Below the pieces are notes generated by a model that saw only the letters and a list, made by a program, of their open reading frames with translations, did no database searches and was not told where the DNA came from. The position numbers and the translations under genes were made by a program. This document shows, piece after piece, positions 4,233 to 15,966 of a stretch of 15,966 nucleotides of DNA. Positions within the stretch are counted from its first letter, which is position 1. Every line of letters starts with the position of its first letter. Source of the stretch: Candidatus Rifleibacteriota bacterium (GTDB lineage: Bacteria; Muiribacteriota; Ozemobacteria; Ozemobacterales; Ozemobacteraceae); NCBI GenBank assembly GCA_051747585.1, contig JBNJGH010000080.1:1-15966 (forward strand), written 5' to 3'.

Positions 4233-5597
4233 ATGAGTAAAGATAAAAAAAGTGTTAATTTGCCGGTATGTGAAGACATGGGATGCGAAGTCGAAAGCAA
4301 AGGAAAAAAATCAAAAGAAGATTTCAATCTCAGACCAGAAAAATCTAATTTTGAAAAATTAGTTTTAAAAATTATCTGGATAACGTTCTTCGTCTGTTTT
4401 GGGGTTTTTCTTTTTTTAACCTCAGAGAACGGCAGCCCAACTTGGCGAAAAGACAGCCTTGAAGTCGCCTCCAACACTTTAAACTGGCTTATTTTATCTT
4501 CTCATTCCGGAGCAACTACTCTACTTGACTTTTTATCCAAGCATCTTGTTTCGGCAATGATCCCTGCATTTTTCCTTGCAGCTGCAATATCTACCTTTTT
4601 CTCTAAAGAAACAATTATTTTAACAATAGGGAAAAAAGCCAGCCCATTTGTAAGTTACCCGATAGCGGCTTTTGCCGGCGCAATTCTAACCGTTTGCTCA
4701 TGCGGAGTTCTACCGATTTTCATGAGTCTGCTTCAAAGCGGAGCCGGTCTCGGGCCTGCAATTACTTTTCTTTATGCATCGCCGGCAATAAATTTGATCT
4801 CTTTAATTTACACATGGAAAATTCTGCCTTCTATGCTGGTAGCTCGCATAGTATCAGTTGCATTCTGCGGTATTATTATCGGCATTATCATGCAGAAGCT
4901 TTTTACTCATACCTCTGAAGAATTTGAACACGAAGAACCCGAAATCAAGCCTTCAAATCGCAAAGCCTGGCAAGAAGGTCTTTTCTTTATAATTCTGGTT
5001 TTTATTATGCTTACCTCAACTGATTTATTTCAGTCTTTCACCAGTCAGCTGGTTTCACCGGAACACTTTGCAGATCGTGGTGCTGAGATGGCTGCCAAAA
5101 CTGCAGAATTTGCAGGAAAAATGCTTGCGATTGGCATAGAGGTATTACTGGTTCTAGTTATACTTTGGCGTTGGTTTACCTGGAACGAAACGAGGAAATG
5201 GCTGAAACGCACTTATCGTCAGGCACGCAGGATCATACCCATGGTTGTGCTGGGTATTTTCTTTTCAGGGTTCCTTGGCGGGACCAGCTCTATCGTCAGT
5301 AATCTTGAACTCGTAGGCGACAACTCAATCTTCAGCAACCTTCTTTCTTCTCTAATCGGTTCATTTCTCTATTTCGGCTCAATTGTCGGTGTTAACGTTG
5401 TTGATCTATTCATGCGATGGGGCATGCACCCGGGCCCAGCCCTGGCGCTGCTACTCGCAGGCCCTTCGATCAGCCTGCCGAGCATTTTGGCGCTGACCCC
5501 GATTATGGGTAAAAAGCGAACCTTTGCATTTCTGGTTCTCGTATCACTTTTCAGTGCCGCAATGGGATTGATTTTCGGTTCATTTGCAACCGTTTGA
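4233..5597 (+). CDS. DUF318 / ArsP-family permease
   Basis: 454 aa with many TM segments and a two-half architecture. Family motifs: LTVCSCGVLP...GAGLGPAITFLYASPAIN and GMHPGPALALLLAGPSISLP. AGGA lies 8 nt upstream of the ATG. Confidence 0.88.
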   Translation: MSKDKKSVNLPVCEDMGCEVESKGKKSKEDFNLRPEKSNFEKLVLKIIWITFFVCFGVFLFLTSENGSPTWRKDSLEVASNTLNWLILSSHSGATTLLDFLSKHLVSAMIPAFFLAAAISTFFSKETIILTIGKKASPFVSYPIAAFAGAILTVCSCGVLPIFMSLLQSGAGLGPAITFLYASPAINLISLIYTWKILPSMLVARIVSVAFCGIIIGIIMQKLFTHTSEEFEHEEPEIKPSNRKAWQEGLFFIILVFIMLTSTDLFQSFTSQLVSPEHFADRGAEMAAKTAEFAGKMLAIGIEVLLVLVILWRWFTWNETRKWLKRTYRQARRIIPMVVLGIFFSGFLGGTSSIVSNLELVGDNSIFSNLLSSLIGSFLYFGSIVGVNVVDLFMRWGMHPGPALALLLAGPSISLPSILALTPIMGKKRTFAFLVLVSLFSAAMGLIFGSFATV

Positions 5598-5600
5598 TCC

Positions 5601-6227
5601 ATGAAAGATATCAAACTATATAAATTAATGAGTGGGCATGTTTTCCGCCCAATTTATCCGTATTTATGTGAATCGGCTTTTCAACGCAGCCGAATTCAAC
5701 CACAAGACGCTGAAGTTGTTGATTTAGGAGGCGGCTCGGGCCTATGGCTCGAAGCCATGTTTCAAAAAGGCATTAAAAAGGGCACTCTTGTAGATGTTTC
5801 CGCAGAGATGGTAGAAACTGCACAATCACTGCTTGGAGATAATTATTCTGAAGACAGGTTCGAGGCTTTGGTTGGCGGCGCAGACAACATACCTCTGCAA
5901 GATTCAAGCTGCAACCTGATTATTAGTCGCAGTTCGATGCATATGTGGTCCAATCTGGATAAATGCTGGCAGGAAATTTACCGCATATTGAAGAAAGGCG
6001 GATCAGCCTTTCTTGGCAGAGGCTACGGCCCTGATTTACCCGAAGAAATAAGGCGACAGGTAAAAGCCGACCGAAAAAAAATAAGAGCAAAAAAGGCTGA
6101 AATAGCAAAAGAAGAACCCCCATCTCCCGATCCTTTCGAGCTTGGAGCAAAGGTTTACCGCCTTGGGTTCAAAGAAGTCTCTATTATCAGAGATGCCAGA
6201 GCCTGGTGGATTCTGGCAATAAAATAA
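5601..6227 (+). CDS. Class I SAM-dependent methyltransferase (Methyltransf_11-like)
   Basis: Motif I VVDLGGGSG, acidic LVDVSAEMV, IPLQDSSCNLIISR and EIYRILKKGG. Starts 3 nt after the permease stop. Confidence 0.9.
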   Translation: MKDIKLYKLMSGHVFRPIYPYLCESAFQRSRIQPQDAEVVDLGGGSGLWLEAMFQKGIKKGTLVDVSAEMVETAQSLLGDNYSEDRFEALVGGADNIPLQDSSCNLIISRSSMHMWSNLDKCWQEIYRILKKGGSAFLGRGYGPDLPEEIRRQVKADRKKIRAKKAEIAKEEPPSPDPFELGAKVYRLGFKEVSIIRDARAWWILAIK

Positions 6228-6254
6228 GCCTGAGATTCAGTAAAGGGCTTTTTT
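6226..6254. terminator. Possible weak terminator between convergent genes
   Basis: aagcc...ggctt followed by a T run in the 25-nt gap between convergent stops. The stem is short and the loop large. Confidence 0.25.
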
Positions 6255-6858
6255 AATCTTTCTGATAATATTCGATTTCGCCCTGACAAACCAGGCACTT
6301 TTTCTGCCCCTCTTTTACAGCCAGAAAAGACTCTTTGCATCCTTCACAAAGGGCCGCAGGGTACATGGGGGGCTTGCCATGATCCAGAACTTTCACCTTT
6401 TCCCAGGCAAAAATACTGTAATCGAGGCTATTGAATTCATTCATGATTTTCTGGCCTGAAGCCCTTCGCTTGGGTCCGCCATTTTTTATTTCAGGGCTTC
6501 TTTTTCTTAAAAAGAATTTTGCCATTTCCGGAGTCTTTTCTGAATCGATTTTGTCGTAATCCAGGTAAACCCTGATTCCTCGGCCATCATGGCGATCATA
6601 AAGGGTAAAGGCAAAACGACCCAGATTATCAAATATTCTCAGGTATTTATTGCCATAGGTGCATCCCGCCATAATCTGCAAAACATCAACAAGACAGGAT
6701 CTTCCTTCGCAAACAGCGTTAATTTTGTCTTTTACGGATCCGAGTTTTTCAAGAGCAAGCGAAACCATTTCTACACCTATCGGAATAGCGGGAGCTCTTT
6801 TTGTGTGAAAAGCAAAAATCTTTTCGACAAGTTCCTCTTTTTGTTTTGAATCTAACAT
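6253..6858 (-). CDS. FmdE (formylmethanofuran dehydrogenase subunit E)-family protein with C-terminal C4 zinc finger
   Basis: FHTKRAPAIPIG, VCEGRSCLVDVLQIMAGCTYGNKYL, GRFAFTLYDR...GIRV and C-terminal CEGCKE...CLVCQG. Start placed at 6858 (MLDSKQ) because AAGGAG precedes it. The track's 6876 ATG (ATGA overlap with the upstream gene) is the alternative. Confidence 0.85.
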   Translation of the reverse strand: MLDSKQKEELVEKIFAFHTKRAPAIPIGVEMVSLALEKLGSVKDKINAVCEGRSCLVDVLQIMAGCTYGNKYLRIFDNLGRFAFTLYDRHDGRGIRVYLDYDKIDSEKTPEMAKFFLRKRSPEIKNGGPKRRASGQKIMNEFNSLDYSIFAWEKVKVLDHGKPPMYPAALCEGCKESFLAVKEGQKKCLVCQGEIEYYQKD

Positions 6859-6872
6859 ATTGTTCTCCTTTT

Positions 6873-7637
6873 TCATTCCGTGCTGTCATTATTTTCATTC
6901 TGACTTTTCTGTTCATTACCGAGCTTTTCATTCAACTTTTTATAAGAATCCTCAACAAGCATCAAAGCCATCTTTACTTTAAAATTCATTTTATCTTCGA
7001 GATTATTACAATTTTCTTTGAGTTTAGCAATATAATCATTCATGGAATAAGTGAGAGCTTTCTTATCCTCATCCAACAACTCTTTTAATTCCATAAGATT
7101 CTTTTCTATATGTTCTATTTCGTTTTTAAAAGCTGACAAATCCTGATTTTTGTAATGCATATTCAGCTTTTGCAAGCCGGTTGAAATCTGGTAATGTCTT
7201 TCTCCTTCCGGCGACTTGGGCATATATTCAAATAGAACAGTAATATTTTTTGAGAATTCAAGAACCTGGTTATGAGACCTGCTCAGATCGTTTTCATTCA
7301 TAGATCGGTTAATTTCACCGATTTTATCGGCAAGCTTTTTGAACTTATTTTTCCAGTTTTTATCTTTTTTAGCCCAATCCGGCGGATACTGACTGAAATT
7401 ATTGTCAAAACTTATCCATTTGTTCATCAATTCTTTTAAAACCGGACGAGCAGATTCTATTGAGGAAATGTTTTTACCAATTTTAACCGAAAGCTCAACC
7501 AGTTTCGAAGTATTTTCAACAAAAGAGTCAGTAACTGTTTTGTTTGACATCAAAGAAATAAGATTTGTATCACAGGCATATAGCTTGAATGGACACAATA
7601 AAGCGAAGGCCAGCAAAACTGAAAATAAAGTTTTCAT
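6873..7637 (-). CDS. Exported hypothetical protein, predicted all-helical
   Basis: 254 aa with signal peptide MKTLFSVLLAFALLCPFKLYA|CD, amphipathic helical pattern and GGAG upstream of the ATG. Abuts the FmdE-family gene. Confidence 0.8.
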   Translation of the reverse strand: MKTLFSVLLAFALLCPFKLYACDTNLISLMSNKTVTDSFVENTSKLVELSVKIGKNISSIESARPVLKELMNKWISFDNNFSQYPPDWAKKDKNWKNKFKKLADKIGEINRSMNENDLSRSHNQVLEFSKNITVLFEYMPKSPEGERHYQISTGLQKLNMHYKNQDLSAFKNEIEHIEKNLMELKELLDEDKKALTYSMNDYIAKLKENCNNLEDKMNFKVKMALMLVEDSYKKLNEKLGNEQKSQNENNDSTE

Positions 7638-8131: not shown

Positions 8132-10252
8132 ATGAAAAATTTTTTATTAAAGTCGCGGCCTGATTTACAAAGCAAACAGGGTTTTGCCATTATGATTGCG
8201 CTTGTTATAGGCACTATAATGCTTATTCTGGCGGTTTCCCTGTTTTCTTTTGTCGGACACCAGCATACGGGAATTCAAAATATAGTTAATGGCGAAGTCG
8301 CTCATTTTCTTGCCGAAGCCGGAATTAATTCATGTATTGGCACAGTAAGAGAAGCAATTAATCGAGACTTTTCTGCTGCCGACAACAAGTCAAAAATAAG
8401 AAAAATACTTTTAAAACCCGGAAAAATTGAAGATATATGCATTAACGATGTGTTAGGCGCAGACTGGAACAGGGAGTTAGAAAAATTTGCCGCTGAAGTC
8501 GATTCTGAAGAAGCTTCAATAAATGTAGACGTATGGCTCAGGGATTTTGAACTGACAGAAACCAGCCCTGCTCAATGGTCAGACCCGGTCAGCAAAGAAG
8601 GATATCTGGTCGTCGAATCTACCGCCGAATATAAAAATTCACAACGCGTTTTATCGGTTCGAAGACAGCTTAAAGTTTCAAGCACTTTGCCAGGCCCTTT
8701 AAGCAAATTTACCCTTTATGTAAAAAATGCATCACGAAATGGAGAAAACAGTTACAACCTTATCCGAAACGACTATCGAGGCACGATAACCGACGGCCCC
8801 AAGCCTCTTATCTGTTATAATCACCAAACACCGGAATCTCCTTTTTCGGACGCAAGTCTGGGTGAAATTTTCAAAGAGGAAAAAAATAATCAGGTCTGGC
8901 AAAAGCGTGGCTGGATATATATGGGCCCCGATAAAATTCGCTTAAACCTTTGTTCAGGTGCAGGAGAGCTCGGAGAAATATTTCATTTTTATGATGTGAG
9001 TAATAGCTTTGATTTCGAGCCGGTAAAATTTGTTACCCCCGAAAATGCCCTGCCGCCGAAACTGCAGACTAAAGTTCAAATTCCCTGGGATTTGAGTAAT
9101 CAATCGGTTCGTACAGTACAATATGAATTTGAACACAGCTTTGTTCTCGATGGCTTTCATGATCGCAGCAACCGAAAAGAAACCGACGCCATGTATGAAG
9201 GCAACATTTTATCCGATGGCGAGGAAAATCATTACACTTCCCGTTCGTCAATACTGCATCTATACGGCGATGCAAGAAAAGGTTATCAGTCCCGCACCAG
9301 AATTTTCGGCCCTGTAACTGCTGCGTTTCCCCGTTTTGCCAGTCTTAAAGTAAGCTCACCGGAACCGGACGTGCAAAACATGCTTGATACGGTTAACCCA
9401 CCGCCGCTTTATCTGGTGCCCTCACGCGGCAACGATGATTACCACAATTCAATCCCAATAAAAGATGCGCTGAACCGAAATTTTGGCGGGCCTTTACTCA
9501 AATCCGGGATGATTTGTGAAAACTATTCTCAATACAGTTCAATTATGAGCCGCATAACAGAGCAACCCTACGTATTTTCTTACAACAGCATGCAGGATGT
9601 GTATTCAGATGCTGCCAATAGAATCTTTCCCTCTCAAAATCAAATTCTTACGCACGACAATGCAAACAACATTCTTATAACCGGGCCAGGCGACCACAAA
9701 TTCTTTGAAGGGAAAATAAGACCGGGACAAATATGCCGCCAACTCAAAAGCAGAACACAACAGGAAATAGATGAAACAAGTGACTTCTGGGAAGAATTTA
9801 TCAATGAAAGTGGAGAACTTGAGCTCAATCAAATCGTGCATATAAAAAACAGTAAAAATCTGGATTTTATTGTGCCACCATCCGGGAGCTCTCTTCCTTT
9901 GCAAATCAAAAAAGGCGGCATGGTTATTCTCGAACAGGGCAACCTTGTGATACGCGGCCTGAAAAGCAAAACCGCTGATGAATCTCTAACTATAGTAGCG
10001 CCAAATGCGACTTCAGTCTCTTTTCCGGGCGCACAACCGGCTCATGTAAACCTAATCGCACCTTCTGCAGAGCTGAGTTACAGCTCCAGGCTCGAGATAT
10101 TCGGTAATCTTTGTGTCGGTTCGATCTTTGCTGACCATAGATTCCAGGGCGGAACCTTGAAATTTCGCAGCGACCAGGATCCAACCGATTCAGGATACCA
10201 GAATTATTACAAAACATTTCTTGATAAAGTAGACTCTTACTGGCATGAATAA
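8132..10252 (+). CDS. Large PilX/GspK-like minor pilin (pseudopilin) with an uncharacterised C-terminal region
   Basis: KQG|FAIMIALVIGTIMLILAVSLF is a class III signal peptide lacking Glu+5, followed by AHFLAEAGI, typical of PilX N-terminal domains. 706 aa. Confidence 0.8.
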   Translation: MKNFLLKSRPDLQSKQGFAIMIALVIGTIMLILAVSLFSFVGHQHTGIQNIVNGEVAHFLAEAGINSCIGTVREAINRDFSAADNKSKIRKILLKPGKIEDICINDVLGADWNRELEKFAAEVDSEEASINVDVWLRDFELTETSPAQWSDPVSKEGYLVVESTAEYKNSQRVLSVRRQLKVSSTLPGPLSKFTLYVKNASRNGENSYNLIRNDYRGTITDGPKPLICYNHQTPESPFSDASLGEIFKEEKNNQVWQKRGWIYMGPDKIRLNLCSGAGELGEIFHFYDVSNSFDFEPVKFVTPENALPPKLQTKVQIPWDLSNQSVRTVQYEFEHSFVLDGFHDRSNRKETDAMYEGNILSDGEENHYTSRSSILHLYGDARKGYQSRTRIFGPVTAAFPRFASLKVSSPEPDVQNMLDTVNPPPLYLVPSRGNDDYHNSIPIKDALNRNFGGPLLKSGMICENYSQYSSIMSRITEQPYVFSYNSMQDVYSDAANRIFPSQNQILTHDNANNILITGPGDHKFFEGKIRPGQICRQLKSRTQQEIDETSDFWEEFINESGELELNQIVHIKNSKNLDFIVPPSGSSLPLQIKKGGMVILEQGNLVIRGLKSKTADESLTIVAPNATSVSFPGAQPAHVNLIAPSAELSYSSRLEIFGNLCVGSIFADHRFQGGTLKFRSDQDPTDSGYQNYYKTFLDKVDSYWHE

Positions 10253-10694
10253 CAAAACGAACAGAAAAGGCCTCTCGCTCATTGAATTAACAATTTCACT
10301 GGGCATTTTTGCAGTAATTTTACTACCGGTATTTTTTACTTTTTCGAGTGGAAGCCAGAATTTGATGGTTACTGACACAGAATTCAGAGCGCACGCCAAT
10401 GCTCTTGAACTTATGGAACAGCTGATTTCCCTGCCCTTTGAATTGATACCGGTCGGAAAGTTTAATTCAGACCAGATAAAGGGCATCGACGAGCAGCAAA
10501 AACCTAAAATTCCGTTTAAAATAACAGAAAACAAAGACTTCAAACCCAATGTCGAAATCAACGAAATCAAAAAAAACAATAAAGTAGTATTTAAAAAAAT
10601 CAGTGTCAGTATCAATTTTCCAGCCTCAAAAGTTAATGAGCGTAATAGAAAGATCGAAATAAAAACCCTGGTGGCTAATGAAAGCAACAAATAA
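10245..10694 (+). CDS. Prepilin-type N-terminal cleavage/methylation protein (PilV/GspI-like)
   Basis: RKG|LSLIELTISLGIFAVIL, C-terminal KKISVSINF strand, 149 aa. Overlaps the upstream gene by 8 nt. Confidence 0.88.
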   Translation: MNNKTNRKGLSLIELTISLGIFAVILLPVFFTFSSGSQNLMVTDTEFRAHANALELMEQLISLPFELIPVGKFNSDQIKGIDEQQKPKIPFKITENKDFKPNVEINEIKKNNKVVFKKISVSINFPASKVNERNRKIEIKTLVANESNK

Positions 10695-11253
10695 CAAAGG
10701 CTTTACCCTTGTCGAAATTTTGATTGTCTGCGGGGTAACCGCAGTATTTCTGACTACAGCCATATCTGTTTTCAGTAATTTCAGGCGCGGTTATTCAAGA
10801 AGCGAAAGCAGTGCCATTCATCTTCAAGATACTGCACTTTTCGTTGCCAAGTTACGAAATGACCTTAACAATGCGGTTATCGATCCTTCCCCTTCTTCGC
10901 AAAACCAGTCAAATCACTTTGAAACCACCGACGAAACTTTAAGTTTTATGGTTTACGATAACACAATTGGTCAGGTAACCCCTGTTTCTTACAGCTTGTC
11001 CGGCAAGCAAGACCAAAAGACTCTTAAACGACGCCTGGGTAACAATTCAAATAAAATTCTAATTAAAAACAACGTTGCTTCACTTAGTTGGAACCCCGAA
11101 ATTGAAAGTTTTTCAGGCAAAGCCTCGGGCACATTTCGACTTTGTCTGAATCTCAAAATTTTGCTAAAAGACAAAAAAAGCAAAGAAAAACCTTTCGCCT
11201 TCAATACCAGAATATTTCCGGCTCGCCTGAACAAACAACTCAACAATAGATAA
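10678..11253 (+). CDS. Prepilin-type N-terminal cleavage/methylation protein (PilW/GspJ-like)
   Basis: NKG|FTLVEILIVCGVTAVFL, then LRNDLNNA and VSYSL...LKRR typical of J/W-type pilins. 191 aa, 17-nt overlap with the upstream gene. Confidence 0.88.
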   Translation: MKATNNKGFTLVEILIVCGVTAVFLTTAISVFSNFRRGYSRSESSAIHLQDTALFVAKLRNDLNNAVIDPSPSSQNQSNHFETTDETLSFMVYDNTIGQVTPVSYSLSGKQDQKTLKRRLGNNSNKILIKNNVASLSWNPEIESFSGKASGTFRLCLNLKILLKDKKSKEKPFAFNTRIFPARLNKQLNNR

Positions 11254-11323
11254 TTTTTTGAAACATAATCAGGTATTTTTTCGTATAATTTAAGTAAGCA
11301 AACATGTACGGTGGAGGGTTAAC

Positions 11324-12484
11324 ATGAAAAGGCAGACGTTTCTAATATTTTTTCTTATATTAGGCTTTATAACCGCAGGTTTAAGCGGTTATGCTCAGAG
11401 TCAGAGCTACCTTGATACTATTTATCAAGCCGACCAGCAAAAAAAGGGTGAGGCAACTTCAATAGAAGAAGATGAAGCACAATATGCTCAAGACAGCGCC
11501 AATGCCACCCCCGACATAATTGACATACCTGACCAAGAAGGGCGGCCCGAGCAACAAAAAGCCCAGGAAAAATTACAAAACGTTATAAACAATATTCTCC
11601 GCATACTCACAGGAAAAGCTTGTGGCAGCAAAATTGTAATTGTGGTTATCCCCTGTGAAAAAATCATGCCTCCACCAGAGGCAGAGCCTGAGCCCGCACC
11701 TGACCCTGACCCCGATCCCGACCCTGCACCTGACCCTCAACCGGACCCTGATCCGGCTCCAGATCCAGAACCCGACCCAGACCCTGCACCTGAACCTCAG
11801 CCTCAGCCAGACCCAGACCCAGAACCCGAACCGGATCCAGTTGTAGACCCCGGACAAAAACCCGATGATGTCAGTGGCATGCGTGCTTACATTAAAGAGA
11901 AATACGGCATCAACTGTAGCGATGGAGATAGAGCCACCTGGAGTATAAACCAGATTAAAGCTGCAGACGAAGCCTTTGAATCTTTACCACCATTTTTCCG
12001 GGATGCAACTCAGGTAGTTTATCGTGATGGCCCGGCTCCATCTTTCGCGCCCCCCACGGTATTGGGTTACGTTATCGTACCTCAGCGCAAAGTTCATATG
12101 ATGGATTTAAGCACGAAAATGACCACCGGGCTTTACAACTCTCTTGTTCGTGCTTATGGTCGCGAACCCACTGAAGAAGAACAGATGGCCGCCCTGAAAC
12201 GAAACTTTCAGGGAACCCTGGTACATGAAATGACTCACACCTTCCAGAACACTTACCCCCAGATAGCACAGCAGTGGTATAACACTTTTGATCATAGAAC
12301 CAGCCCTACCGGTTATGGGAAAACCCAGCCTGCCGAAGATATGGCAGAATCTGTTCGCGTCTACTGGCAGGGTGGAAGCATTCAGAACGGCAGATTTGTT
12401 TCCAGTGGTGGCACTGTAATGGATCTCGAAAGATACGAATTTATCAAAAATAACATTATGGATGGCAAAGAATACCTCAATTGA
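11324..12484 (+). CDS. Exported zinc metallopeptidase (gluzincin, anthrax lethal factor/PPEP-like motifs) with Pro-Asp/Glu linker
   Basis: GGAGG RBS; signal peptide ending ...GYA|Q; HEMTH (residues 301-305, nt 12224-12238) followed by TGYGKTQPAEDMAES (Y331, E338). Confidence 0.8.
   Translation: MKRQTFLIFFLILGFITAGLSGYAQSQSYLDTIYQADQQKKGEATSIEEDEAQYAQDSANATPDIIDIPDQEGRPEQQKAQEKLQNVINNILRILTGKACGSKIVIVVIPCEKIMPPPEAEPEPAPDPDPDPDPAPDPQPDPDPAPDPEPDPDPAPEPQPQPDPDPEPEPDPVVDPGQKPDDVSGMRAYIKEKYGINCSDGDRATWSINQIKAADEAFESLPPFFRDATQVVYRDGPAPSFAPPTVLGYVIVPQRKVHMMDLSTKMTTGLYNSLVRAYGREPTEEEQMAALKRNFQGTLVHEMTHTFQNTYPQIAQQWYNTFDHRTSPTGYGKTQPAEDMAESVRVYWQGGSIQNGRFVSSGGTVMDLERYEFIKNNIMDGKEYLN
11669..11839 (+). 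repeat. Coding low-complexity repeat (Pro-X)n, X = D/E/A/Q
   Basis: Residues 116-172 PPPEAEPEPAPDPDPDPDPAPDPQPDPDP...EPDP, with codons diversified at third positions. Confidence 0.95.
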
Positions 12485-12497
12485 TCGGGAGAATAAG

Positions 12498-13874
12498 ATG
12501 AAAAAAGTTGTATTGTTTTTGATTCTTTTGCTGGTAATTTCTCCTGCTAACCCTCTTAAAGCTCAGAATGCCAGTTATCTCGATTCTCTCTATCAAACAA
12601 CCGAAGGTTCAGAAGACGAAACTCAAGAACCTGATGCCATCGAAATTTTAAAACAAGATATTTACAACAGTCACCAAATAGTCATACGTAATGAACCCGA
12701 ACTGGATCAATGGAGCGAAACCTGGCTTCAAGCTGTAAAAGAAGTGCTCGACATTATGCCGGCAAGCTTTACCTGGCCGACTCGTATAATATCTATTGAT
12801 CCGAGCTACAGCCAATATGAAATCAAATATAACGGTTTCAGCAAAAGTCAGGGCGAAATTATTCTAGGATACGGCTCGATGGCTCCCTCCAGTCTTTACC
12901 TTAAAGCTTTTCGCAATTCTTACGACAGAGTACCAACCACCGACGAAAAAATAGCACGCTTTAAGTTTATTCTTGTCAGAGGAATGGCATACTCTTTCAT
13001 GCAAAGCTACCCTGATGTAACCGCCAGATGGAAACAACTGTTCAATCCCGGTCCGGTCCCCACCAAAGTGTTCGGTCCGGGCCAGGACCAGAACATGATA
13101 GTCATGCCCGGCATGAACCCTGAACTTGTCGATATGGCTTTCTCGGTAGCTCTTTATTGTTCTTCGCCCTCCTTGCTCAGCGAGAAATCAGAGGACCGAA
13201 AGAAATTCATAAAAGACCATGTCATGTTTGGCCAGACACTCAGCGGCTGGGATTCAACCCCAGTATTAGAAGATGACGACGACAATCAGAACACCGGAGG
13301 CAATACCGGCGGTGACGGCACCGTAGAAGAACCCGGTTCCAGGCCGCCACCAGACATTCCGGACGGTGATTACATGCCCATAGTAACCGAAGCCGATGTA
13401 GGTACTGCTGCGGCACAAATTCCCCAGGAACATCAAAGCGCACCAGACCTTCTCAAAAATGCGATAGTCGAAGTGTTTGAGTCTTTACCAAAGTATTTCT
13501 CGACCTGTACTGAAGCTATAGTTTATGTTCCAACCACAGATACCGAAGCGGCATTTTCTTCTGAAGGCTATATTTTTATAACTCAGAATTCATGGTTTGC
13601 ACCATCTTTCGTTGAACTAACCGATGAATCAAGAGCCGACAGGTTCAAAAAGATGCTGATCAGAGAGATGACCAAGAGATTTCTTTACTTCCATCCCGAA
13701 ACCTCGCAACTCTGGCAGGAAACCTTTATACCAAACCAAAATATGTACGATGTTTATGTCGATCTTTGTGAGGCCACTGTGCTTTATTATCAAAATCCAC
13801 AATGGTTGCAAGATCTGAATCCTGAACGTTATAGCTTTATAAAAACTGAGCTGATGCAGGGGCAGGAGTTCTAG
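12498..13874 (+). CDS. Exported protein with two tandem, apparently inactive copies of the neighbouring peptidase domain
   Basis: Start moved from the track's 12462 to ATG 12498 (GGGAGA RBS, signal peptide MKKVVLFLILLLVISPANPLKA|Q), giving 458 aa. Both halves align by eye with 11324..12484, with HEMTH replaced by RGMAY (nt 12978-12992) and REMTK (nt 13662-13676). Confidence 0.8.
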   Translation: MKKVVLFLILLLVISPANPLKAQNASYLDSLYQTTEGSEDETQEPDAIEILKQDIYNSHQIVIRNEPELDQWSETWLQAVKEVLDIMPASFTWPTRIISIDPSYSQYEIKYNGFSKSQGEIILGYGSMAPSSLYLKAFRNSYDRVPTTDEKIARFKFILVRGMAYSFMQSYPDVTARWKQLFNPGPVPTKVFGPGQDQNMIVMPGMNPELVDMAFSVALYCSSPSLLSEKSEDRKKFIKDHVMFGQTLSGWDSTPVLEDDDDNQNTGGNTGGDGTVEEPGSRPPPDIPDGDYMPIVTEADVGTAAAQIPQEHQSAPDLLKNAIVEVFESLPKYFSTCTEAIVYVPTTDTEAAFSSEGYIFITQNSWFAPSFVELTDESRADRFKKMLIREMTKRFLYFHPETSQLWQETFIPNQNMYDVYVDLCEATVLYYQNPQWLQDLNPERYSFIKTELMQGQEF

Positions 13875-13880
13875 ACCAAC

Positions 13881-15966
13881 TTAACGCCAGTTATAAACCT
13901 GTAATAAATTTGCGTAGTCATCTGTCCAGAGAGAATATTCAGACTGCGATTCAAGTGTTTTCCAGTTGCCAAAGCGCCCGATTAATTTTAATCGGGTGCT
14001 CTTTTTTGAACCAGCTACCCAATAAGACTTTGAAATTCGCGCTTCATCATACCAGTCGTATTTGATTGAATAATCTTTTGGATCGTCTCTTCGCTCTATG
14101 CCTTCTATATTGAGTTCTTCAAAGATTCGCGCAACCACATAGCCAAGCTTGAAAAAACGATTAGACAGGTGCAAAACCAACACTCCATCAGGCTTTAATT
14201 TTTTTAAATAAAGTTTGAATGCTTCAACTGTCAAAAGATGTACCGGCACGGCATCAGAAGAATAGGCATCTAACACCAGAATGTCATAGGAATTGTCTCT
14301 TACCTGCTCAAGCTTTATTCTGGCATCACCCGTAACCACATTAACCTCGGCTTTACTGTTCTTAATGTAGGTAAAATAATCGGGGTTGGTAGCTATATCA
14401 ACGACCAGCGGATCAATCTCAAAAAAGTCATATAACTGCCATTTGCGGCCATACCAGGCCATTGTGCCACAACCAAGACCAACGACTCCTATTTTTTTTG
14501 CCCAGCGCTTGATCAGGGCAGCAGAGAAAATATCTCCCACAGGCCCCTCGCGAGAATAATAAGACAACGGAAAAATCGGCCTGATTTTGATTTTTCGCTC
14601 TACCCCATGCAAAGTAGTGCCATGGCTCAAACAGTAAAACAGATCTTTTTTCCCGATGGTATTGAGGTCCTGGTAATCTACATTTTCTTCAGTTCTCAAA
14701 CTCTGAACTTTTATTATTCCAAAAAAACTGCGATCGACAAAAACGGTATTATCGCTAAATACCTTATGGTTCAAAGAAAAGAGACTGGCAATAAGAAAAG
14801 CAGTAGCGGCAAATCTTTTAAACCTGTAAAAGAAATGAATCATGAAAACCACAGAAAATATGGCCAGAAGCCCAATTGCATTGAAAAATTTATCAGCGGT
14901 CATTTTTGAAAACCAGGCAAAAACCATTAAGGCAAACAGTATTAAAACGATAGCTGAAACTTCTTGAAGGGCGCTTGCATCTTTATCACGATATTTTTGG
15001 GCAAAACAAGCCGCAATTACCGCTAAAAGTAAAGTTAAAATGTATTCAATCTGGGAATTGAATGCGACAGGAGCGACAATGCCGTTAAAGATACCACCCA
15101 AAATACCTCCGATCGACATATAAACGTAAAAAGAATTGAGATGATGGACCGCAGGCCGATCAAGAGCCAGTCTCCCATGAAAACTCATACATACAAAAAA
15201 TAGAAACAATAGATGCAGACTTATACTGAACCAGGCCCGTTCATTCAAGCCGAAGTAATACATCAGCGAAACAAGAACCGCCATGGGCAGCATGAATCTA
15301 TCCCAGGGAATGGTGCGATAAAAATCGGTTAAAGCAAACACAAGAATAAAAGAAAATAAATAAATCGACAACGGAACAACCCAGAGAAGTGGTACAGAAG
15401 CAATATCGGTAGCTATGTGCGTGGTTACTGCAAGCATGGCACTACATGGAATAAAACCCCACAAAACCCAGGCCCCGGAACTTCTCCAGGAAACTCGGGA
15501 CTGTCGATAAAAATCTGCTTTAAGTTTACTGTTGGCTTCTGAGGTCTTTCCCCAGAAACTGGCTGCGCAAACAGCTACCAGAACGGCCTGCAAAATAAAC
15601 AGCCCCGACCAGATAAGTTTTTGATCTGTCAGAGTAAAGTTTGGTTCAATTAAAAATGGGTAAGAAAGCAATGCAAGCAGACTCCCGGCATTGCTGGCCG
15701 AATAAAGAAAATAGGGATCTTCAGAGTTTTTTGCACCGGTATTTGCGTACCAACGCTGAATTATGGGAGCGTTGGCGGCAATTATAAAGAACAAAAATCC
15801 GATGGAAGCCAGCAAACGGGCAATCAGCCATGAAATCGGACTGGCAAATGCATTGTTCAAACCGGTAAAATCGACACTCAAAGGCAGAAAAACAAAGGCG
15901 GTAATCATCAGCAATGCATGCAGCACCGATTGTTTTTCACAGCCAAGATACCTAATGGTTTTTTCT
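13881..15966 (-). CDS. Fused membrane (MFS-like)/spermidine synthase-like SAM-dependent protein; 5' end outside the window
   Basis: The frame is open past the track's GTG 15926 to the window edge (EKTIRYLGCEKQSVLH...). Motifs DPYFLYSASNAGSLLALLSYPFLIEP, LSHGTTLHG, IGVVGLGCGTMA, FEIDPLVV, GDARIKL, LVLDAYSSDAVPVHLLT and WTDDYANL. Confidence 0.92.
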   Translation of the reverse strand, partial: EKTIRYLGCEKQSVLHALLMITAFVFLPLSVDFTGLNNAFASPISWLIARLLASIGFLFFIIAANAPIIQRWYANTGAKNSEDPYFLYSASNAGSLLALLSYPFLIEPNFTLTDQKLIWSGLFILQAVLVAVCAASFWGKTSEANSKLKADFYRQSRVSWRSSGAWVLWGFIPCSAMLAVTTHIATDIASVPLLWVVPLSIYLFSFILVFALTDFYRTIPWDRFMLPMAVLVSLMYYFGLNERAWFSISLHLLFLFFVCMSFHGRLALDRPAVHHLNSFYVYMSIGGILGGIFNGIVAPVAFNSQIEYILTLLLAVIAACFAQKYRDKDASALQEVSAIVLILFALMVFAWFSKMTADKFFNAIGLLAIFSVVFMIHFFYRFKRFAATAFLIASLFSLNHKVFSDNTVFVDRSFFGIIKVQSLRTEENVDYQDLNTIGKKDLFYCLSHGTTLHGVERKIKIRPIFPLSYYSREGPVGDIFSAALIKRWAKKIGVVGLGCGTMAWYGRKWQLYDFFEIDPLVVDIATNPDYFTYIKNSKAEVNVVTGDARIKLEQVRDNSYDILVLDAYSSDAVPVHLLTVEAFKLYLKKLKPDGVLVLHLSNRFFKLGYVVARIFEELNIEGIERRDDPKDYSIKYDWYDEARISKSYWVAGSKKSTRLKLIGRFGNWKTLESQSEYSLWTDDYANLLQVYNWR

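Follow-up and report, generated by a model that had tools for sequence, protein, structure and literature searches.

Why is a peptidase-like protein that has lost all of its zinc ligands kept directly behind the gene of an intact zinc peptidase, and what could it do there? This question is raised by a stretch of 15,966 nucleotides (hereafter the window), which is the entire contig JBNJGH010000080.1 (C80) of a 4.1 Mb genome of a Candidatus Rifleibacteriota bacterium of the family Ozemobacteraceae. Gene A (11324..12484) encodes a protein of 386 residues, which consists of a signal peptide, an N-terminal module, a Pro-rich linker and a C-terminal HExxH peptidase domain. Gene B (12498..13874) encodes a protein of 458 residues with a signal peptide, an S-Y-L-D motif (12573-12596) and two pseudopeptidase domains. 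Both genes, whose parts all lie on the plus strand, are intact open reading frames (ORFs); signal peptides and cleavage sites, here and below, were judged by eye. The named homologues of A and B are from Candidatus Riflebacteria. Here, we report that B is a zinc-less pseudopeptidase paralogue of A, whose fold has been kept, whose ligands have been lost family-wide and whose gene is selected for, and that a third gene, designated I, encodes a candidate inhibitor of A.

The catalytic domain of A (11870..12475) contains the sequence HEMTH (12224-12238), followed by Tyr331 (at 12314) and Glu338 (at 12335). The residues H301, E302, H305, Y331 and E338 are invariant in 64 of 64 rows (the query and 63 homologues). 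The downstream Tyr and the Glu seven residues on both aligned to the solved active sites of Mx1, anthrax lethal factor (LF) and Pro-Pro endopeptidase (PPEP) structures, and E338 is taken to be the third zinc ligand from the numbering of LF. A profile of 37 A domains matched two Mx1-type zinc lipoproteins (E 3-5e-4) and, more weakly, LF and Pro-Pro endopeptidases, the alignments running through the HExxH and the Tyr...Glu segment. Peptidase_Mx1 was matched weakly by 14 of the 37 A-family members, the best E-values of the relatives being 1.7e-5 to 6.2e-5. A passed no Pfam cut-off for ATLF, M90 or Mx1, Pfam and NCBIfam gave no name for its domain or for B, and a single-sequence search of the PDB with A returned no match. 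The wider A family comprises 1825 representatives at E<=0.001, and the motifs are kept by nearly all of 125 new top matches. Because of the profile matches of A and the fold matches of the B model described below, A is assigned to the ATLF/PPEP/M90/Mx1 clan as a gluzincin-type peptidase and not as a metzincin, the clan fold having been modelled only for the homologous domains of B. Judged by its signal peptide and motif residues, A is likely an exported zinc endopeptidase; secreted ATLF-like peptidases are known (PMC3841139, in part). The A family is expanded in three genomes from which B is absent (G010, G022 and G023, with 19, 13 and 9 matches per genome, partly in tandem). An A paralogue with a divergent I gene also precedes a gene for an extracytoplasmic function sigma factor, a short ORF and another triad of pilin genes (L060-L063).

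An earlier interpretation of this DNA, made from its letters alone (the sequence-only reading), had proposed that one domain occurs three times in A and B, that all three zinc ligands are missing from both copies in B and that the ORF of B is intact, and each of these proposals holds. All motifs that it had quoted are in the sequence. The pairwise scores among the domain of A and the two domains of B, B1 (12636..13241) and B2 (13443..13871), are 110-120 as compared to shuffle means of about 30, and none of 2000 shuffles scored as high for any pair. Profile-profile comparisons gave probabilities of 99.86 for A and B1 (E 2.9e-31), 99.70 for A and B2 and 99.16 for B1 and B2. A conserved segment preceding B2 (13326..13406; conservation 0.79, predicted local distance difference test score (pLDDT) about 88) probably completes the N-terminal part of that domain. 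At the position of the HExxH motif, B1 has RGMAY (12978-12992) and B2 has REMTK (13662-13676). The zinc-binding His residues are missing at both positions from B1 and B2 alike in 42 of 42 rows, and the position of the third-ligand Glu is occupied by V, I, T or A in all 42 rows of B1 and by a residue other than Glu in 41 of the 42 rows of B2. In B1, invariant Arg (R161) and Tyr (Y165) residues stand in place of the two His and the catalytic-base Glu is lost; B2 has retained this Glu (E390) in 42/42 rows. Only a single His is conserved in B among 39 full-length rows.

According to its AlphaFold model (mean pLDDT 83, predicted template modelling score 0.54), B shares real fold homology with LF, a comparison that had been offered as an analogy: the catalytic domain of LF was matched with Z 11.0 over 170 aligned residues (root-mean-square deviation 4.3). 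Further structural matches are PPEP-3 and PPEP-2 (both Z 9.4), 4l7a (9.3) and MtfA (7.8) as well as the N-terminal domains of Certhrax (8.5), LF (8.4) and edema factor (8.2). The ESM Atlas is in line with the same clan for B, as a lead only, and a Foldseek search with the whole B model gave no match at E<=0.001. In close genome pairs, the ratio of non-synonymous to synonymous substitutions (dN/dS) ranges from 0.016 to 0.071 in five comparisons of B1 and from 0.006 to 0.057 in four of B2, similar to A with 0.020 to 0.111, only 8 and 32 of 153 pairs being unsaturated (medians 0.06 and 0.08). B is thus under strong purifying selection and functional rather than decaying. Conservation in the segments that correspond to the cleft of A exceeds the average of the respective domain, with 0.77 against 0.63 for the helix of B1, and 0.83 and 0.84 against 0.74 for the helix and the edge strand of B2. 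Moreover, B1 carries the same helical insertion as the A subfamily with which B co-occurs. In a tree of 95 domains, which has long branches, an unsettled bootstrap and lacks six B proteins left out at extraction, single branches are formed by B1, by B2 and by the two together (98/97, 100/98 and 99/97, respectively), which fits one origin of B followed by internal duplication. B did not join the insertion-bearing A clade in this tree. Variants of B also exist: one of 727 residues (L064, G041) and a 390-residue fragment with a pilin-like segment (P0039), with an insertion in the linker or in the second domain; G041 has a second copy of B.

Is the pair of genes a unit? Among the 51 genomes of the host family, A-family genes are present in 47 and B in 29, which belong to 6 of 15 genera and nearly always have a single copy of B. 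In 21 of the 29 genomes (6/6 in genus g1, 14/14 in g15 and 1/1 in g6), B is immediately preceded by A, and the arrangement in one further genome is not judgeable at a contig end. The expectation that an active and a dead gene stay paired is thus borne out by the two-gene unit in three genera and fails in the other three of the six B-bearing genera; the A-B pair is a conserved unit in one clade and not obligate. A seeming lack of A in two B-bearing genomes, G040 (97% complete) and G038, was rejected as a case of B without A, as the expected A locus falls at contig ends in both. A conserved promoter-like element, TTG(A/C)AAC ... CGTATAAT (11258..11289, plus strand), is located between the upstream pilin triad and A. 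Of 17 pair loci, 15 have the CGTATAAT part ahead of A, one has a variant of it, and in another it falls outside the printed stretch; a consensus promoter scan does not list the element. The start of B is most likely 12498 rather than 12462 because a ribosome-binding site precedes 12498 and B begins 10-25 bases past the stop of A in 17/17 pair loci. Contigs from RNA libraries cover A and B in four of four salt-lake metatranscriptome runs. These contigs, all from a single study, span 11307-13970, leave the triad almost uncovered and do not bridge the A-B junction, and they say nothing on transcript starts, ends or levels, so that neither co-transcription nor independence from the triad is derivable.

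Clustering of the neighbouring genes uncovered I, which encodes an exported protein of 158 residues recurring beside A-family genes. Its model (pLDDT 81) gave 16 Foldseek matches at E<=0.001 with a template modelling score of about 0.6, including agrin NtA (the best, 1.8e-5), TIMP-2 (3.8e-5), TIMP-1, TIMP-3 and other NTR domains; the Atlas gives a lead. The modelling thus predicts that I has the oligonucleotide/oligosaccharide-binding fold of N-TIMP and NTR domains. A sequence search of the PDB with I returned no match, and no longer or fused forms were among the matches listed in a weak search. I is TIMP-like and not a TIMP because its alignments contain no conserved Cys and hence neither a Cys-X-Cys start nor disulfides. 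From the predicted cleavage site, mature I begins with a Met that is invariant in 34/34 rows; these rows were chosen by a Met-containing pattern, and seven further rows also begin with Met. With a profile seeded from A-linked genes, 120 rows were obtained in the family, and 103 genes for I remain once the 17 weaker rows are set aside. Of these, 37, in 30 genomes, come immediately after an A-family gene, a further 12 adjoin one in another arrangement, 19 are separated from A by the pilin triad, 5 are distant and 30 are on contigs without A. The copy numbers of A and I correlate (rho 0.80, among kin that are not independent), and I is retained in all 29 B-bearing genomes. In 19 relatives, I is divergent and lies upstream of the triad, a place taken in the window by an unrelated gene for 254 residues. 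In this genome, I has moved together with a flagellin-like neighbour. A short flagellin-like gene (263 residues) adjoins I in the B-bearing clade (L031 5115-5906, L071 8776-9567).

In five of eight loci, drawn from 12 matches in other families of the phylum, a distant homologue of I immediately precedes a matrixin (M10) gene. Because a TIMP-fold gene tracks two unrelated classes of zinc peptidases, I is read as an inhibitor, and, given its modelled fold, it probably inhibits A. The sequence-only reading of an enzyme with an adaptor, inhibitor or receptor stands as regards an intact HExxH gene and a selected pseudopeptidase, whereas the role of the inhibitor better suits I than B. I is the likelier inhibitor, and adaptor or substrate receptor would be the best remaining reading of B. 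The matrixin genes at these loci (L138, L139, L141, L144 and L145) are large and bear PKD, Ig and dockerin repeats, and together with the I homologues they are candidates for bacterial MMP-TIMP operons.

The three proteins may be joined in one scheme, to which, as a whole, we give slightly less than an even chance: A would be an exported zinc endopeptidase, B its non-cutting, peptide-binding paralogue and I an N-TIMP-fold inhibitor of A. Judging from their signal peptides, A, B and I would cross the inner membrane by the Sec system. The zinc ion of A would be held by the HExxH motif and Glu338, with Tyr331 assisting, and A might cut an extracytoplasmic protein while being tethered by its long linker to an N-terminal docking module. 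I, whose fold is predicted, would plug the active site of A with its free N-terminal Met as a TIMP does, thereby shielding the envelope of its own cell. TIMPs chelate zinc via the N-terminus. B would have arisen once from an A-type gene in one clade, been doubled internally and lost the zinc ligands while two conserved clefts were kept. It might capture, present or shield the class of peptides cut by A, and whether B is such a bivalent, two-cleft, non-cutting receptor or adaptor seems to us evenly balanced.

Several observations weigh against this scheme. A is located apart from B in 7 of the 29 genomes (genera g7, g12 and g14), and all genomes compared are kin and hence not independent. The I gene of this genome lies on another contig than A and B (C30:14240-14713 of G000; L071 8241-8717, plus strand). 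For 35 of the 103 I genes there is no neighbouring A, and I occurs within 6 kb of only 74 among 133 A genes (133 of 150 listed rows were used, 15 matches to B and two split halves having been dropped). The NTR fold is also used by binders that do not inhibit, such as agrin and C345C, and a Cys-X-Cys start, which I does not have, is usually required for the inhibition of MMPs, as stated in the part of PMC4860685 used here. Listeria Tim is cleaved by Mtz instead of inhibiting it, according to the available part of PMC8235301. An intact HExxH motif can also give no activity, as described for CD1597 in a section of PMC11460543. Furthermore, neither A nor B comes after the triad in 11 of 41 loci, and the link to the pilus may be mere synteny.

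B could instead be a stable subunit that tunes or activates A, possibly via the shared insertion, in a heteromer like the alpha and beta chains of the mitochondrial processing peptidase (MPP), for which Table 2 of PMC11266112 offers a precedent. The tight two-gene unit in 21 genomes speaks for such a subunit, as does the occurrence of the insertion-bearing A subfamily in five of the six B-bearing genera with the same insertion on B1. However, common descent explains the shared insertion equally well, the genes are unlinked in the seven genomes just mentioned and nine genera have A without B, and we regard the subunit as unlikely. It is still less likely that B serves independently of A as an adhesin or receptor on the surface or the pilus tip, their adjacency merely recording a tandem duplication. 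In G020, B indeed directly follows the triad while A lies elsewhere with I, and unlinked B genes are still kept, nearly always as single copies. However, B and the triad are likewise not linked in g12 and g14, A and B share a promoter-like element separate from the triad, and the seeming absence of A in two genomes coincides with contig ends.

To the same low degree we would expect B to inhibit A directly or to soak up TIMP-like inhibitors, be it the I protein of the same cell or those of competitors, as a decoy that frees A. The B-bearing clade has B in the slot behind A that is held by I in other genera, and B has kept the surface fold that I would recognise. However, I accompanies B in all 29 genomes and has thus not been replaced by it, and TIMP-type binding requires zinc, which is absent from B. 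Finally, B might be catalytic through other ligands or another chemistry, as the catalytic-base Glu of B2 persists in all 42 rows and the conserved residues of B include two Cys, one His and several acidic ones. We consider this highly improbable: neither domain has His at the zinc positions, and the lone conserved His, ten residues beyond the motif, stands where A has no ligand. A Pro-Pro-Pro segment of B was also considered as a bait for A and was rejected because it is not conserved (present in 33/42 rows and absent in 8/42 homologues, some of them linked to A).

How does the non-cutting receptor or adaptor envisaged for B, next to a live A and an inhibitory I, compare with known systems? 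Domain I of LF is itself a dead peptidase. The domains with which LF, edema factor and Certhrax bind protective antigen belong to the same fold clan as B and also place a dead copy for binding beside a live one. Domain I of LF and of Certhrax binds protective antigen (PMC3000352, in the part at hand). Unlike in these toxins, the dead copies form a separate exported protein with two tandem domains, the identity being 7-14%. No toxin context or translocator resembling protective antigen was evident among the neighbouring genes, a genome-wide search not having been made. PPEP-1/Zmp1, PPEP-2, PPEP-3, MtfA (M90) and the Bacteroides Peptidase_Mx1 lipoproteins share the HExxH with downstream Tyr and Glu with A and the fold with the model of B, and are secreted (PMC3841139, in part). 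A differs by its N-terminal module and long linker and resembles the PPEPs in its probable fold only, and neither a pseudo-paralogue nor a TIMP-like partner is described for those peptidases in the parts of the literature cited here. Pseudopeptidases acting by binding or scaffolding are established in alpha-MPP, CPD domain III, FtsHi and inactive ADAMs, which like B lost the zinc ligands and retained the fold; the metallopeptidase pseudoenzymes covered by the relevant sections of PMC11266112 are, unlike B, eukaryotic or organellar and of other families. The text of that review mentions neither "lethal factor" nor "gluzincin".

The closest parallel to A and I are Mtz-Tim of Listeria and the TIMP-MMP pairs of animals, in Listeria with the gene of a secreted zinc peptidase directly followed by that of a TIMP-fold protein. 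The authors who described Mtz-Tim state that there was no earlier record of bacterial TIMP-like proteins (PMC8235301, in part). However, Mtz and the MMPs are metzincins, whereas A is of the gluzincin type. Moreover, Tim is a lipoprotein whose fold was assigned at about 60% Phyre2 confidence (same part of PMC8235301), whereas I is non-lipidated, has an invariant N-terminal Met and lacks the Cys-X-Cys.

Thus, known kinds of relationship, enzyme with pseudoenzyme and protease with TIMP-fold protein, appear in a new combination, which is notable since A is a gluzincin. The open-access literature on Riflebacteria, Ozemobacter and bacterial TIMPs yielded no description of an A/B/I system. A three-part exported system consisting of an LF-fold gluzincin, a Cys-free N-TIMP inhibiting via its N-terminal Met and a lineage-specific two-cleft pseudopeptidase receptor is a tentative proposal. 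If it were true, TIMP-type inhibition would extend past the metzincins, and within a single phylum one and the same bacterial TIMP family would have changed between matrixins and gluzincins. Provided that I inhibits A, it would be a bacterial TIMP-fold inhibitor of a non-metzincin, which would inform the origin of TIMP inhibition and offer a small inhibitor scaffold free of disulfides. Taken alone, the dead twin is of moderate interest; a gluzincin with a TIMP-fold partner is more surprising and more testable. A live enzyme, its dead twin and a candidate inhibitor make a clean natural set in a clan whose most familiar dead domain belongs to a toxin. Small, soluble and expressible, A, B and I lend themselves to direct tests of the question, and the set gives a first access to the surface biology of a lineage that is uncultured and rich in pilins.

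A and B have a further feature in common that the sequence-only reading had not pointed out, an S-Y-L-D-[ST]-[IL]-Y motif just past the signal peptide (11405..11431 in A). In A, it is followed by a conserved amphipathic helix and hydrophobic strand (residues 80-111; 11561..11656), which B does not have, and by a low-complexity linker rich in Pro, Asp and Glu (11660..11863), whose sequence is poorly conserved. The S-Y-L-D motif and the helix-strand module recur on exported thioredoxin-fold proteins of this genome (C303) and of G050, which suggests that these elements form a docking module with exchangeable C-terminal domains. The thioredoxin-fold proteins (G000:C303:1-912, minus strand; L117 922-1896, plus strand) also have a long linker and a Cys-rich repeat.

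Three pilin-related genes precede A on the plus strand: one for a GspK/PilX-like protein of 706 residues (8132..10252; weak GspK match, E 0.007) and two for minor pilins or pseudopilins with the N-methylation motif PF07963 (10245..10694 and 10678..11253). The first of these genes has an orthologue in 48/51 genomes of the host family. In 30 of the 41 loci, selected in part because they contain A or B, one of these two genes comes next after the triad. The gene order is triad > A > I in most other genera, I < triad > A > B in the B-bearing clade and triad > B in G020. Gene order thus suggests a pilus or type II secretion context for A, which is perhaps mere synteny because of the loci with a triad lacking A and B and because of the promoter-like element of A itself. 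In the whole genome, 75 ORFs fit the pilin-type N-terminal pattern, many of them paired or in triads, which, by pattern only, amounts to a large expansion of minor pilins.

Downstream of B, a terminator-like hairpin with a T-run (13973..14000, plus strand) lies within the 3' end of a convergent gene; sites of this type are not enriched over shuffles (8 vs 7.3). The genes for an ArsP-type permease, a methyltransferase and an FmdE-family protein (4233-6876) are ordinary and absent from the pair loci of relatives. The exported protein of 254 residues encoded next to them (6873-7637, minus strand) is helical, belongs to no family and has a predicted mature form that begins with Cys.

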